In this document: positions 6,245 through 9,442 of the stretch, piece by piece | Layout of the letters: each line of letters starts with the position of its first letter | How positions within the stretch are numbered: position 1 is the stretch's first letter | From: a virus | Taxonomy: Duplodnaviria; Heunggongvirae; Uroviricota; Caudoviricetes | Length of the DNA stretch: 9,442 nucleotides | Strand: one strand, 5' to 3' | Virus record (IMG/VR): IMGVR_UViG_2548876961_000016 | The notes under the pieces: model-generated | What the model was told of the DNA's origin: nothing | Databases searched by the model: none | What the model saw: only the letters and a program-made list of their open reading frames with translations | Made by a program: the position numbers and the translations under genes

Positions 6245-6474
6245 TAATGCCCCCCCCCTTTTAATTCATGTACTGCTGCAATAATTACATGTGATAAACC
6301 TGCTTTACCGGAATTACTGATTACTGAATCAATCGCCGCTTGCATATTAACGGCCTTCACGTTCTGCGTGATGCCAACGGTATAGCCGCGCTTGTTAACA
6401 GCACGGGAAAAAACGCGGAAGGTTTTAAGCACGGCACACCCCCTGACGAATACGGGCGACAAATACAGCAACAC
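6244..6474 (-). CDS. Hypothetical small protein; start uncertain (GTG at 6474 or ATG at 6345 giving 33 aa)
   Basis: ORF ends ...HELKGGGH, with GGG GGG GGG encoded by a 9-nt G tract. Its stop overlaps the next gene start (TAATG). The ATG at 6345 has an AAGG 9 nt upstream. Weak support overall. Confidence 0.25.
   Translation of the reverse strand: MLLYLSPVFVRGCAVLKTFRVFSRAVNKRGYTVGITQNVKAVNMQAAIDSVISNSGKAGLSHVIIAAVHELKGGGH
6250..6258. repeat. Homopolymeric tract C9 (G9 on the coding strand) at the junction of two small leftward ORFs
   Basis: Encodes GGG at the end of ORF 6244..6474, immediately before the overlapping stop/start TAATG. Confidence 0.8.
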
Positions 6475-6628
6475 AACCTGACGGGCAACGGCTACGCGCT
6501 TCGCGTTCCGTCCAGGCGGTTACGTGGATGATTTGAGATTCTCCGGCACTCAGGGCCAGAAAACGCCAGATGTATTTATTCAGGTTGTGCGAGTCCCGCC
6601 CTTGCGGGTGTGTGGTATGATTTAACAT
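6425..6628 (-). CDS. Hypothetical small protein (67 aa), possible first gene of the leftward operon
   Basis: Internal ATG within the long 6425..7123 ORF (MLNHTTHPQGRDSHNLNKYIWRFLALSAGESQIIHVTAWTEREARSRCPSGCVAVFVARIRQGVCRA), preceded by GAGGT 4-5 nt upstream. The longer upstream extension crosses the divergent promoter region and is antisense to the plus-strand gene, so it is unlikely to be coding. Confidence 0.3.
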   Translation of the reverse strand: MLNHTTHPQGRDSHNLNKYIWRFLALSAGESQIIHVTAWTEREARSRCPSGCVAVFVARIRQGVCRA

Positions 6629-6705
6629 AGCTACCTCGATACTGTTGCTATCGTTGGTTGTTAGACGCCCTGCATGTGTGCCACCACTGCGGGGCGTTGT
6701 TATTT

Positions 6706-6797
6706 GGTGCATCGCACCATCTGTTTTTAACCTATCAGCAAGTGAATCGCACTTCAAGCCTTTTCTCTGAATTTTTTTTGTGTATACTGAATCGCAC
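6706..6797. promoter_or_regulatory. Divergent control region with three copies of a (T/G)GAATCGCAC-type motif and a -10-like TATACT
   Basis: GGTGCatcGCACC (about 6706-6718), GTGAATCGCAC (about 6742-6752) and TGAATCGCAC (about 6788-6797). TATACT at 6783-6788 lies about 30 nt upstream of the 6819 ATG. The region sits between the leftward operon and the plus-strand small gene. Confidence 0.4.
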
Positions 6798-6818
6798 CAA
6801 CTTAGAGAGGATTCAGTA

Positions 6819-6998
6819 ATGGCAACAGGTTCAACAAATAATAAGTCGCAACAGTTAAATGCCAGATTCCCGCATGATGTTGTTGCAGACTTAGAAAAAA
6901 ATTTAGATGAAGGTGAAAGCAAAGCGCAATTTATAGTTACTGCCGTTAAAGGCGAAATCAAACGCCGCCAGCGCCGCAAGGCCAAAGAGCAGGAATAG
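6819..6998 (+). CDS. Small putative DNA-binding protein (ribbon-helix-helix-like), candidate regulator
   Basis: 59-aa ORF from the internal ATG at 6819 (MATGSTNNKSQQLNARFPHDVVADLEKNLDEGESKAQFIVTAVKGEIKRRQRRKAKEQE), preceded by GAGAGG 8 nt upstream. The GTG at 6780 in the ORF track has no RBS. The strand/helix/helix pattern and basic tail are RHH-like by eye only. Only plus-strand gene in the window. Confidence 0.5.
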   Translation: MATGSTNNKSQQLNARFPHDVVADLEKNLDEGESKAQFIVTAVKGEIKRRQRRKAKEQE

Positions 6999-7086
6999 TC
7001 CACCAGCAAGCCAGCACACTGAGCACATTGCCCACCAGACAGCAAATCGCTATGATGTTCGGGCTTATGTTTAGTGTTTTCCCATT

Positions 7087-7115
7087 GGCGACCGCCACAG
7101 GTCGCCTTTGTTTTA
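7087..7115 (+). terminator. Rho-independent terminator for the small plus-strand gene
   Basis: GGCGACC, loop gccaca, GGTCGCC, followed by TTTGTTTTA. It lies about 90 nt after the stop at 6998 and just before the alpA stop (convergent arrangement). Confidence 0.55.
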
Positions 7116-7132
7116 TGTGTCATATGTTCCCC

Positions 7133-7357
7133 CTACGCTGCCTTACCTGAATTAATACGATCCCGGCTTTTAACCCATTCCATAACCTCGGAAAGCAGCC
7201 AACCTACTGAACGACCACCCAGATTACGGCGTGACGGGAAATTCCCTTTTTTCTCCAGTTCGTAGCGTGTAGTGCGGCACACTCCTGTTAACTTACGGCA
7301 TTCATCCTCACGGATTACGCGATCTGATAGTGATTGAAATTGTGTATTTTGATTCAT
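7133..7357 (-). CDS. alpA: AlpA-family (Phage_AlpA / Vis-like) HTH transcriptional regulator
   Basis: 74-aa ORF. Core RVIREDECRKLTGVCRTTRYELEKKGNFPSRRNLGGRSVGWLLSEVMEWV matches the AlpA-family pattern (l..ev...tGlsrst.y.l...g.FP.p..lg.r.vgW...ev..W). Its position downstream of the integrase matches CP4-57-like elements. Confidence 0.85.
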   Translation of the reverse strand: MNQNTQFQSLSDRVIREDECRKLTGVCRTTRYELEKKGNFPSRRNLGGRSVGWLLSEVMEWVKSRDRINSGKAA

Positions 7358-7419: not shown

Positions 7420-7453
7420 GTGTGATATCACACTACCAGCACGTGATATCACT
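7420..7453. promoter_or_regulatory. Pair of palindromic operator-like sites (GTGTGATATCACAC and GTGATATCAC) about 21 bp centre to centre, upstream of alpA
   Basis: Perfect 14-bp palindrome at about 7420-7433 and perfect 10-bp palindrome at about 7443-7452, sharing the core GTGATATCAC. Two-helical-turn spacing is typical of cooperative dimer binding. The second site overlaps the stop codon of the 257-aa gene. Confidence 0.5.
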
Positions 7454-8222
7454 TTTTACGTTTTTGTTGAGATTCACGCCCCAAATACTTTTGCCATGTC
7501 TGCCAATGTGTTTTTGGAAATTCTATCCCTCTGGATGCAGCTATAGAATCAATTAAATCTGCTATTTTAGGTAATGATTCCGTGTCCAGGTCTACATCAC
7601 CCATTTCTGGAATAAGTTTAATTAAAGAGTAAATAACCTCATTCCTTTTTGACGATGCTTTTGGGCTATCTTCTGTTATCTTCGGGAAGTCTCCCGTATT
7701 TTTTATATTATCTAAATCACTAGCCATCACACACAAATAGTTAACATCAAATTCATAACCACCCTTACAAAAAACATACATGAGATTATCATCACCATAC
7801 TTATTCGTAAGATGAGAACATTTTATATATTGTCTCATGCTAAATTCGACATCAGCAAAAACATATGCCGGAGTATAATAAAACCCTGATAAGCTGCTAA
7901 CATAATAACATTTGATAGAATTCCCTACAGGACCAATAATGGCACTATCTAAAAATTCAGTGTCACCAGTTAAACCAACTGTAAAATTACTTCCAAAAAC
8001 AGCAGATTCATCATTGAAAGGATATTTTATTAATTCTTCCTCATTACAACCATTGATAAAATGACATAATGAAAAATTGAATTTTTTAGCATCAATTTTT
8101 GGTATATATACAGAAATATTAAGAGCACCTATATATGCGTAATGATAAAGATCTTTTATTGCACAGCCTAACTTTTCTGCCGCTTCAGGTAACGGATAAT
8201 AGAGTCTTTTAGGTAATTTCAT
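7449..8222 (-). CDS. Hypothetical protein, AT-rich cargo gene in the int-alpA slot; N-terminal HTH-like segment, remainder unrecognised
   Basis: 257-aa ORF whose start overlaps the integrase stop by ATGA. Residues 5-35 (LYYPLPEAAEKLGCAIKDLYHYAYIGAL) resemble an excisionase/MerR-like helix-turn-helix; the rest is Tyr/Phe/Asn-rich with no motif I recognise. G+C looks much lower (roughly one third, by eye) than flanking genes (about half). Followed by a hairpin plus U-tract (7358-7392). Confidence 0.65.
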   Translation of the reverse strand: MKLPKRLYYPLPEAAEKLGCAIKDLYHYAYIGALNISVYIPKIDAKKFNFSLCHFINGCNEEELIKYPFNDESAVFGSNFTVGLTGDTEFLDSAIIGPVGNSIKCYYVSSLSGFYYTPAYVFADVEFSMRQYIKCSHLTNKYGDDNLMYVFCKGGYEFDVNYLCVMASDLDNIKNTGDFPKITEDSPKASSKRNEVIYSLIKLIPEMGDVDLDTESLPKIADLIDSIAASRGIEFPKTHWQTWQKYLGRESQQKRKK

Positions 8223-9442
8223 TTGGCCACCTTCAGCATAACAATATTTTCATGATTTCCAGCCAGCACATCGAGGCGCTCAACCCATAGATTAAGAGCG
8301 TCACGTTTTGCATCAAGATAACGGGAGTGATTATAGACTCGTTGCATTCCTGGCAACTGGTGCGCGGTAAGCTGCTCCACAACATGCGGTTCCACGCCTA
8401 AATCGTTCAGCATCGTTGTAAACGTGTGCCGGATGTCGTGCAACGTCCAGGGGGCTTGATTAATGCGTCTGTGTGCCGTTCTTCCGTACTCTGATACGGA
8501 TGATTGCCCTTTCAGTTCTCCGAGCAATAAGCCCGTGTGCCTGTTCTGCTCCACCAGCTTCATGACAAACGGCAAGATCGCTTCCGGTATTGGCCTGAAT
8601 ATTGCTACCTTCGTTTTGCTGTGTTCTTTCGGCACGGTCCAGAGCATTTCTTTAAAATCCCATTCCTGGACCTCAGAGCGTCTTAGCTCAGTGGTACGAC
8701 ATCCGAAGACAATCAGGAGGCGAATCAGGGCGCTGTAGTACGGTGGGTAAATTTTTTCATCAAGGGCGCGTAGTAATTCCCCAAGCTCCTTGTTTGTTAG
8801 TACGCGCTCGCTTATTTCTGCTTTTTTCCCAACATCACCGACAACCATATCATCAAGAACGTTGCTGATTGCGTATCGTCGTTTTCGGCAGTACTTAAGC
8901 GCCTGTTTGCATACCTGTAGCAAAAATCCGGCTGATACCGGATTACGCTTAGCAAGCTGGTCAAAACAGGCCAGCCAGTGGCGTAGCTCGCATTTTTCCA
9001 GTGGCATAGCTCCAATCTGGCTAATTATGTGTTTATTGATCCGGCTTTTCAGTGATTCGTAGTCAGTGCGCTTTTCCTTTGCGTACGATTCAAGCCAGTA
9101 AGTGAGCGCTTCCTTAACCGTCACGGGGGCTAACGCGTCCTGTACAGCATGATTAAGTTCATAGCGCGGATTTTTCCCCTCAGCCAGCCATGCGCGACAT
9201 TGCGACGCTTTTTCCCTGGCTGCTTTCAGGCTCAAATCTGGATAATTTCCCAGCCTCAGACGTTCAGGTGATATCTGCCTACCAGTTCCGGACCTGTAAG
9301 TGAAATACCAGGTTAACAGGCCATTGGTTGAATGCCTTACGCTAAGGTTGCCACCATCATTAAAAAAGGTGCTTTTTGTGGTTGGTGATCCGCTTAATTT
9401 TCGTAAAAGAGTGTCGCTAAGTCTATGAATTGCCCTGCTCAT
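8219..9442 (-). CDS. int: Tyrosine site-specific integrase (P4/CP4-57-type phage integrase family)
   Basis: 407-aa ORF. C-terminal catalytic region has the His-x-x-Arg box (LHDIRHTFTTML) and a tyrosine-containing tail (RVYNHSRYLDAKRDALNLW); an upstream Arg box is present (FGCRTTELRRSEV). The ATG is on the last bases of the window, so promoter, att site and any longer N-terminus are not visible. The stop overlaps the next gene start (ATGA). Confidence 0.9.
   Translation of the reverse strand: MSRAIHRLSDTLLRKLSGSPTTKSTFFNDGGNLSVRHSTNGLLTWYFTYRSGTGRQISPERLRLGNYPDLSLKAAREKASQCRAWLAEGKNPRYELNHAVQDALAPVTVKEALTYWLESYAKEKRTDYESLKSRINKHIISQIGAMPLEKCELRHWLACFDQLAKRNPVSAGFLLQVCKQALKYCRKRRYAISNVLDDMVVGDVGKKAEISERVLTNKELGELLRALDEKIYPPYYSALIRLLIVFGCRTTELRRSEVQEWDFKEMLWTVPKEHSKTKVAIFRPIPEAILPFVMKLVEQNRHTGLLLGELKGQSSVSEYGRTAHRRINQAPWTLHDIRHTFTTMLNDLGVEPHVVEQLTAHQLPGMQRVYNHSRYLDAKRDALNLWVERLDVLAGNHENIVMLKVAK

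Follow-up and report, generated by a model that had tools for sequence, protein, structure and literature searches.

The analysis concerned 9,442 nucleotides of a virus (Caudoviricetes; IMG/VR record IMGVR_UViG_2548876961_000016; "the window" hereafter denotes this whole stretch), and within it a small plus-strand gene (6819-6998; ATG at 6819, stop at 6998) encoding a protein of 59 amino acids (aa). Upstream of this gene lie three 11-bp sites of the form GTG-N5-CAC, which recur at conserved positions in related islands of Enterobacterales, and whose five inner bases change together with residues 11-17 of the protein. The gene is likely to encode an Arc/Mnt-like ribbon-helix-helix (RHH) repressor, acting on itself and on a divergent operon that runs from an icd-like gene to a primase gene, in int-alpA-primase satellites of the phage-inducible chromosomal island (PICI) type. 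A candidate antisense RNA would provide a second layer of control.

Repeats were searched in the window region, and a single family of three 11-mers was returned, spaced 35 and 45 bp. These predicted operators, all read on the plus strand, were O1 (GTGCATCGCAC, 6707-6717), which is palindromic (GTGC-ATC-GCAC), O2 (GTGAATCGCAC, 6742-6752) and O3 (CTGAATCGCAC, 6787-6797). With at most one mismatch, KGAATCGCAC matched five times in the window (1.2 expected), and five matches were reached in 0 of 200 shuffles. The first-pass annotation, made from the letters alone, had described three related 10-mers upstream of the small gene, one of them palindromic and one on the -10/+1 region. The repeat search and the shuffles bore this out, O1 being the palindrome and O3 overlapping the hexamer TATACT (6783-6788). 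The variable (T/G) start given to the 10-mers did not hold, as all three begin with T; the G/C variation sits one base further upstream, and the 11-mer is the better description. The existing annotation also agreed that the 59-aa gene is the only plus-strand gene, divergent from the leftward replication operon and convergent with alpA.

Promoters were predicted on both sides of the operators, and their conservation was counted over 48 distinct loci. The leftward promoter (P_L) would serve the operon that begins with the icd-like gene (6425-6628, minus strand; annotated as such in RefSeq, with an NCBIfam phage_ICD_like score of 63.5 bits where the cutoff is 25). Its predicted -35 hexamer is TTGAAG (6752-6757, minus strand), overlapping O2 by one base, and its predicted -10 hexamer is TAGGTT (6729-6734, minus strand), with a 17-nt spacer and a predicted start near 6722. 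TTGA[ACG][GA] abutted O2 at a fixed position on the minus strand in 46/48 loci, TAnnnT stood at 17-nt spacing from it in about 40/48, and a promoter scan of the Nissle island (L004) independently gave TTGACA-17-TAAAGT at the corresponding position. O2 fills the 17-nt spacer and therefore lies inside the predicted core promoter, an arrangement of the P22 immI type. O1 occupies approximately +6 to +16 of the predicted transcript, and abuts the -10 hexamer in those loci in which it stands nearer to O2. From these two positions, repression of the leftward replication operon is predicted. The rightward promoter of the RHH gene (P_R) has a predicted -10 hexamer TATACT (6783-6788, plus strand), present as such in 41/48 loci and as TATA[AC]T in 44/48. 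O3 starts in the last two bases of this hexamer and extends to the predicted +1, which makes it a predicted site of autorepression; it is probably the weakest of the three.

A protein that regulates only its own gene, such as an orphan antitoxin-like or accessory protein, with the leftward operon driven solely by read-through from the alpA promoter, would account for O3. RHH autoregulators are common, and AlpA is needed for expression of the downstream ORF3. We nevertheless consider this very unlikely: O2 and O1 bracketing a -35/-10 pair conserved in 46/48 loci would be left unexplained, and the gene has no co-transcribed toxin partner.

Fifty-seven related islands from Enterobacterales were compared; the loci read comprised 14 Escherichia coli islands (L002-L007 and L052-L059), EcCICFT073 (L050) and 41 species-representative loci (L008-L048). 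The 372-bp region matched 1347 of 5426 complete E. coli genomes (about a quarter) at 66-100% identity, and the module was found in E. coli, Citrobacter, Klebsiella-group genera, Pectobacterium, Dickeya, Yersinia, Xenorhabdus, Proteus and Morganella. At every locus with an annotated flank, the small gene was divergent from the first gene of the leftward operon, at a distance of approximately 190 bp. This first gene was icd-like, or of the ash family in two islands (L058 and L059), and a primase gene stood at the end wherever the whole operon was in view. On the far side of the small gene lay alpA, sometimes together with Bro, Rha or Ant genes. In L058 (1-330) and L059 (1-510), the gene that replaces the icd-like one resembles the helper derepressor epsilon of P4, and from this replacement the repressor appears to guard whatever early gene opens the operon.

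The positions of the sites were nearly invariant. O2 started at -77 from the ATG in all loci. O3 started at -32 in nearly all, its left arm was always CTG, and its core was often one base off that of O2. O1 was found in nearly all loci, either at -112 or between -99 and -104; its orientation varied, and its core was always the element's own. No further conserved copies of the site were found within 4 kb on either side. In two islands of one specificity class (QTVAARV/TTAAA; L057, ~570-700, and L059, ~380-510), the third site was displaced from the -10/+1 of the RHH promoter; it stood immediately next to the leftward -35 (GTGTTGAACAC), where the rightward promoter would have its own -35, and would be a relocated autoregulatory operator.

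The five inner bases were alike within an element and differed between elements, falling into 11 classes by intergenic alignment and by reading of the locus printouts. Each core class was paired with one sequence at aa 11-17, and discordant loci numbered 0/57. The pairs, with alternatives in square brackets, were QQLNARF with AATCG (the window, Citrobacter, Morganella, Proteus, Pectobacterium, Dickeya and Xenorhabdus), QMTTVRI with AAATA, QS[VLI]T[AV]R[IV] with TCTTA, QKLQARA with GA[AC]TC, QKMQARV with TGCTC, QL[TF]TVRV with AAACA, QQIVSRV with [AC]ATGC, LQ[VL]SVRL with AACAC, QALKARV with TGGCC (EcCICFT073), KKLEARV with TCAGC and QTVAARV with TTAAA. The core followed aa 11-17 and not the helices, a comparison that indirectly places DNA specificity, as predicted for an RHH protein, in the N-terminal beta-strand. 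The suggestion in the first-pass annotation that the repeats were likely operators of the small protein was thus strengthened, the core following only the beta-strand. Four genomes carried two islands each (L011/L034, L013/L038, L021/L041 and L042/L046), and the two operator classes differed in 4/4; since about 27% would be expected by chance, this is not significant. The differing classes of these co-resident islands are consistent with heteroimmunity.

The same comparison was used to ask which protein follows the sites. Were the 11-mers bound by AlpA or by the Icd-like protein, with the small gene unrelated to them, this would accord with the activation of island genes by AlpA, with the frequent binding of direct repeats by excisionase-type proteins, and with the match of the Icd-like protein to PHROGs labelled as repressors. 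Identical AlpA proteins were, however, found with different operator classes (L041 and L044 vs. L046; L034 vs. L024 and L045), and unrelated ones with the same class (the window, L005, L008, L009, L010 and L019). AlpA was rejected as the specificity partner on these grounds. The Icd-like protein was rejected likewise: between EcCICFT073 and L007 it is 91% identical (AlpA, 95%) and the operators differ, while between the window and L005 the operator is shared and identity is only 28% (AlpA, only 20%). Binding by either protein is therefore regarded as extremely improbable. A natural swap was provided by L004 and L007, in which the Icd-like proteins are 91% identical and RHH residues 23-52 are 97% identical, and only the beta-strands and the operators differ. 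Sliding identity profiles of island pairs gave flanks of 90-100% identity, with divergence confined to approximately -150 through +60 or +130, a stretch that holds the operators and the N-terminal codons. Divergence bounded in this way is the pattern of an immunity cassette, and specificity appears to map to the N-terminal strand, as expected for an RHH protein.

The protein itself is named YlcI/YnfO family protein in RefSeq (WP_000190566.1), and belongs to NCBIfam NF041551 (YlcI_YnfO_N; 63.3 bits over aa 9-50, cutoff 30). Differences between homologues of the 59-aa gene were concentrated at third codon positions, which indicates a real coding gene. As read from the sequence, the layout would comprise a strand at aa 11-17 (QQLNARF), helix A, a turn at G32-E-S, helix B and a basic tail. 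When the family was aligned to P22 Arc with hhalign (Arc sequence checked against 1arq), P was 7e-4 and the probability 26%, with the strands in register (QQLNARFPHDVV vs. PQFNLRWPREVL), so that Q12, N14 and R16 stand opposite the base-contacting Q9, N11 and R13 of Arc. Pfam families of RHH fold were matched below threshold by homologues, PSK_trans_fac in 5/21 (best E = 1.1e-3) and CB_ParB_C in 4/21. These lines of evidence are each weak and agree with one another, and an RHH fold is likely. By Pfam, NCBIfam and AlphaFold2, the protein has no helix-turn-helix (HTH) match and no domain beyond the predicted RHH fold and the basic tail, and PADLOC holds no family for it. The antitoxin of a type II toxin-antitoxin pair was tried as an identity and rejected, as the gene is monocistronic in the window, with a terminator behind it, the divergent icd-like gene is not co-transcribed, and there is no toxin partner on its transcript. 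In L004 (3197-3502), L007 (3198-3503) and L054 (675-980), the protein is 101 aa long, its helical C-terminal extension (...ENPLISSHDALAQVEKLGIKAAEEIGQLVTVAREELQRRK) recalling the additional oligomerisation domain by which Mnt differs from Arc.

Several results weigh against an RHH repressor of this kind. No curated RHH family model scored above threshold, and the window protein had no Pfam match at E ≤ 10; a PDB sequence search with the family profile returned nothing at E ≤ 10, and Foldseek of the predicted monomer against the PDB was uninformative. The AlphaFold2 monomer, with helices at 19-26 and 35-58, was of modest confidence only (predicted local distance difference test, pLDDT, 68.7). 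P_R lacks a recognisable -35, the position being CTTTTT-like with a T-tract upstream, and the cores of O1 and O2 in the window differ at a single position. No more than 110 bp separates the operators from the beta-strand codons, and linkage therefore adds to the correlation between the two; the sharp bounds of the divergent stretch argue against pure linkage. Finally, overexpression of AlpA alone induces EcCICFT073, and alpA is required, as published (PMC6092414); the repressor can thus be overridden and may not be the main switch.

On the plus strand between the icd-like start codon and O1, a candidate cis-antisense RNA of approximately 80 nt was delimited (6628-6706), a conserved structure that the first-pass annotation had not remarked. 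It comprises two stem-loops, SL1 (6628-6663, plus strand) and the terminator-like SL2 (6664-6698, plus strand), followed by a U-rich tail, and is complementary to the 5' untranslated region (UTR), the Shine-Dalgarno sequence and the start codon of the icd-like mRNA. RNAalifold was run on 42 loci and predicted 22 pairs, 13 of them with compensatory changes; paired cells amounted to 97.2% (slid controls, 34-44%), and the observed measures were reached in 0/500 shuffles. A candidate promoter -10, TATGAT (6616-6621, plus strand), falls within codons 3-5 of the icd-like gene, with TG ahead of it at 6613-6614.

The hairpins at 6628-6698 could alternatively be structure in the 5' UTR of the minus-strand icd-like mRNA, or features of the DNA, and not a separate RNA. 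In favour of this, the leftward mRNA has its 5' UTR here, and the minus-strand sequence folds as well (z = -3.6). The strand comparison nevertheless makes this quite unlikely. G-U pairs numbered 141 in the plus sense and 4 in the minus sense, canonical pairing was 97.2% vs. 82.3%, the minimum free energy was -32.8 vs. -25.3 kcal/mol, and the plus-sense fold was the more stable in 41/41 unique regions folded. The G-U asymmetry and the more stable fold point to selected structure in a plus-strand RNA. The GC-rich SL2 leads into U-rich sequence on the plus strand only, as an intrinsic terminator does, and TAnnnT stood at a fixed distance upstream of the structure in 41/42 loci; this distance holds although the two unrelated N-termini of the icd-like gene place its start codon approximately 6 nt apart. 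From folding and conservation we accordingly infer a cis-antisense RNA, about 80 nt long, that would cover the icd-like Shine-Dalgarno sequence and start codon. Rfam searches of the whole window (E ≤ 1) and of 6540-6830 (E ≤ 10) returned no C4, isrK or Esr41 (RF02676), and only noise. A 10-nt complementarity between the SL1 loop (6642-6651) and the start region of the RHH gene (6819-6828) was not conserved in the other loci read, and was treated as chance. A GC hairpin, CCCGC-CCTT-GCGGG (6594-6607, plus strand), is found within the icd-like coding sequence, a short way ahead of the candidate antisense promoter, and is kept in E. coli islands that have the same icd-like N-terminus.

The proposed sequence of events would run as follows. 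The RHH protein would bind the three 11-bp GTG-N5-CAC operators, its N-terminal beta-strand reading the five inner bases. O2, in the P_L spacer, together with O1, just past the P_L start, would block transcription of the early (replication) operon from the icd-like gene to the primase gene, and O3, as a probably weaker copy on the gene's own -10/+1, would give negative autoregulation. Leaky or read-through transcripts would be silenced by the plus-strand RNA of about 80 nt, made constitutively and pairing as antisense with the icd-like ribosome-binding site. Induction would probably come about through helper-activated AlpA. Read-through from alpA is possible because no terminator faces the alpA transcript, which may run antisense through the RHH gene, across the operators and into the replication operon. 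In many islands, alpA is followed directly by genes of Bro, Rha or Ant type. Such genes, or the read-through itself, could override the repressor once a helper switches alpA on.

A Stl-like master repressor was also considered, in which the RHH protein alone would keep the island quiescent until a helper-phage protein inactivated it. The gene is divergent from the replication operon with operators on the core promoter, the 11 specificity classes resemble those of immunity repressors, and the global repressor of Gram-negative PICIs is called unknown in the literature. A protein of 59 aa has, however, no domain with which to sense a phage protein. Helper phages induce transcription of alpA, AlpA overexpression is sufficient for induction and deletion of alpA abolishes it (PMC6092414; cf-PICI preprint), from which it follows that the RHH protein cannot be the only master switch. 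In a collection of 50,697 phage genomes, moreover, neither the protein nor the DNA region of the module had a match, so that a helper-phage copy, or an anti-sRNA sponge, is not apparent in a sequenced phage. A Stl-like master switch is hence unlikely. Of the divergent master-repressor locus put forward in the first-pass annotation, the operators and the repression of the leftward operon and of the gene itself stand as predictions, and the likeness to Stl stands as functional analogy only. Its further suggestion, that the gene would be the target of helper-phage derepression, found no support, and fits poorly with a 59-aa protein that has no sensor domain.

The preferred reading remains that of an RHH repressor of the replication operon that AlpA can override. 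An extension of it to Gram-negative PICIs in general is put forward tentatively, as possible rather than probable: immunity would have two layers, a minimal RHH repressor in at least 11 mutually exclusive classes and a widely conserved cis-antisense RNA against the icd-like leader, and the RHH protein would be the missing quiescence repressor of islands of the EcCICFT073 type, overridden by helper-induced AlpA through read-through, antisense interference with the RHH gene or island-encoded Bro/Ant antirepressors.

The window was 100% identical to an island of approximately 9 kb that lies between clpS and cspD in E. coli, several of the strains being O157:H7. In the order of minus-strand transcription it carries int (8219-9442), a 257-aa open reading frame (ORF), alpA (7133-7357; Pfam Phage_AlpA, E = 3.4e-16; converging on the RHH gene), the icd-like gene, small overlapping ORFs and DUF4222, a P4-type primase gene, the small terminase subunit gene and a capsid gene, which is the layout of a Gram-negative PICI. 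The genes after the icd-like gene overlap one another, through DUF4222 to the primase gene. The Icd-like protein matches PHROGs 6196 and 1743, labelled "transcriptional repressor" (E = 2e-30), and its NCBIfam name is "cell division inhibitor Icd-like"; given this conflict, one of the two annotations is probably wrong. The 257-aa ORF between int and alpA (7449-8222, minus strand; its stop overlaps the start of int) had no match in Pfam, NCBIfam, PHROGs or PADLOC, and may be a novel cargo or defence gene because other islands carry accessory genes at that position.

Between the RHH gene and alpA, an intrinsic terminator of the RHH transcript was placed on the plus strand, at 7087-7106 by terminator prediction and, with reading of the sequence, at 7087-7116; it acts in the plus direction only, since the minus strand has no U-tract after the hairpin. 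About 30 nt before it stands a promoter-like TTGCCC-17-TATGAT (7028-7056, plus strand), and 7028-7116 might yield a further plus-strand transcript, of very short length, in the interval from the RHH gene to alpA, or the match could be chance. The gene-free left end of the island (250-1020) is rich in repeats: a palindromic unit, CCCGATATGGTGATCCCCATATCGGG, occurs at 819-846 and 937-964, and an 88-nt sequence is directly repeated at 314-401 and 851-938 (95% identity). This end may be a packaging, origin or attachment region.

What represses Gram-negative PICIs globally was described as unclear by Fillol-Salom et al. (2018; PMC6092414), whose experiments on AlpA, then a candidate for the role, showed it to be an activator in EcCICFT073. 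In later literature, subscription journals lying outside the search, no paper names a PICI repressor or this gene as a regulator, and one genome survey merely lists "YlcI/YnfO" among island genes. EcCICFT073 carries the module as C_RS30120 and C_RS30125. These RefSeq locus tags carry high numbers that do not fit the series of the neighbouring genes, which points to their addition during re-annotation and could be the reason why the module was overlooked. The repressor/operator switch proposed here, probably aided by a small antisense RNA, has not been described before in the searchable literature for the replication operon of E. coli PICIs, the model EcCICFT073 included. The module is a concrete and widespread candidate where the PICI repressor was an open question, and can be tested in an existing model. 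It opens the questions of what silences these satellites, how AlpA overrides the silencing, and whether co-resident satellites avoid cross-talk by operator class. If the two-layer extension is true, the specificity classes would act as "immunity groups", so that several satellites could live in one cell without repressing one another. The 11 natural strand/core pairs would serve as a data set for rules of RHH recognition and as a source of orthogonal minimal repressors.

Four known systems were compared with the module. YlcI (DLP12) and YnfO (Qin) of E. coli K-12 (DUF3950) share the NCBIfam N-terminal model and the RHH-like pattern, and are likewise small divergent genes; they differ in adjoining cos and nohD at the end of lambdoid prophages. 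In the cryptic lambdoid prophage DLP12, ylcI (L051, 6251-6445, minus strand) is divergent from nohD, directly beside cos. K-12 YlcI was rejected as a close homologue, with only 23% identity over 31 aa. The satellite proteins form their own subfamily (PHROG 949), absent from the 50,697 phage genomes.

Stl of the Staphylococcus aureus pathogenicity islands (SaPIs) and Rpr of Gram-positive PICIs share the proposed role, that of a divergent repressor of the excision and replication operon of a satellite. They are larger HTH proteins of unrelated fold, with a part that senses phage proteins, and are co-oriented with int. Here int and alpA run with the replication operon and opposite to the RHH gene, and the known path of induction is AlpA. 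With no HTH, no sensor domain and no co-orientation with int, the kinship to Stl implied by the first-pass annotation does not hold, nor does one to Rpr.

In the P1 immI region, the C4 RNA acts on the icd ribosome site. The P1/P7 arrangement (C4 - icd - ant) is alike in that an Icd-family gene opens the operon, its ribosome site would be the target of a small structured RNA, and the downstream genes overlap and are likely coupled. It differs in that C4 is processed from the same transcript, whereas the candidate here is a cis-antisense RNA on the opposite strand, joined by a predicted protein repressor; no Rfam covariance model of P1 C4/isrK matched.

A further parallel in layout is the immI region of P22, which has the divergent promoters P_ant and P_mnt and in which the Arc operator is placed inside P_ant. 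General roles have been assigned there to Mnt, Arc and the sar antisense RNA (PMC11016777). P22 immI has two repressors to the one found here, a single operator of 17-21 bp in place of three separated 11-bp sites, and ant in place of an operon of icd-like and replication genes; it belongs to a phage and not to a satellite, and no homology is detectable with HMMER. Both regions have a small RHH repressor (predicted here) divergent from the operon it controls, as is Mnt, and an operator inside the core promoter (likewise predicted here); the short antisense RNA sar lies over the ribosome site of the regulated gene in P22, as the candidate RNA would in the window.

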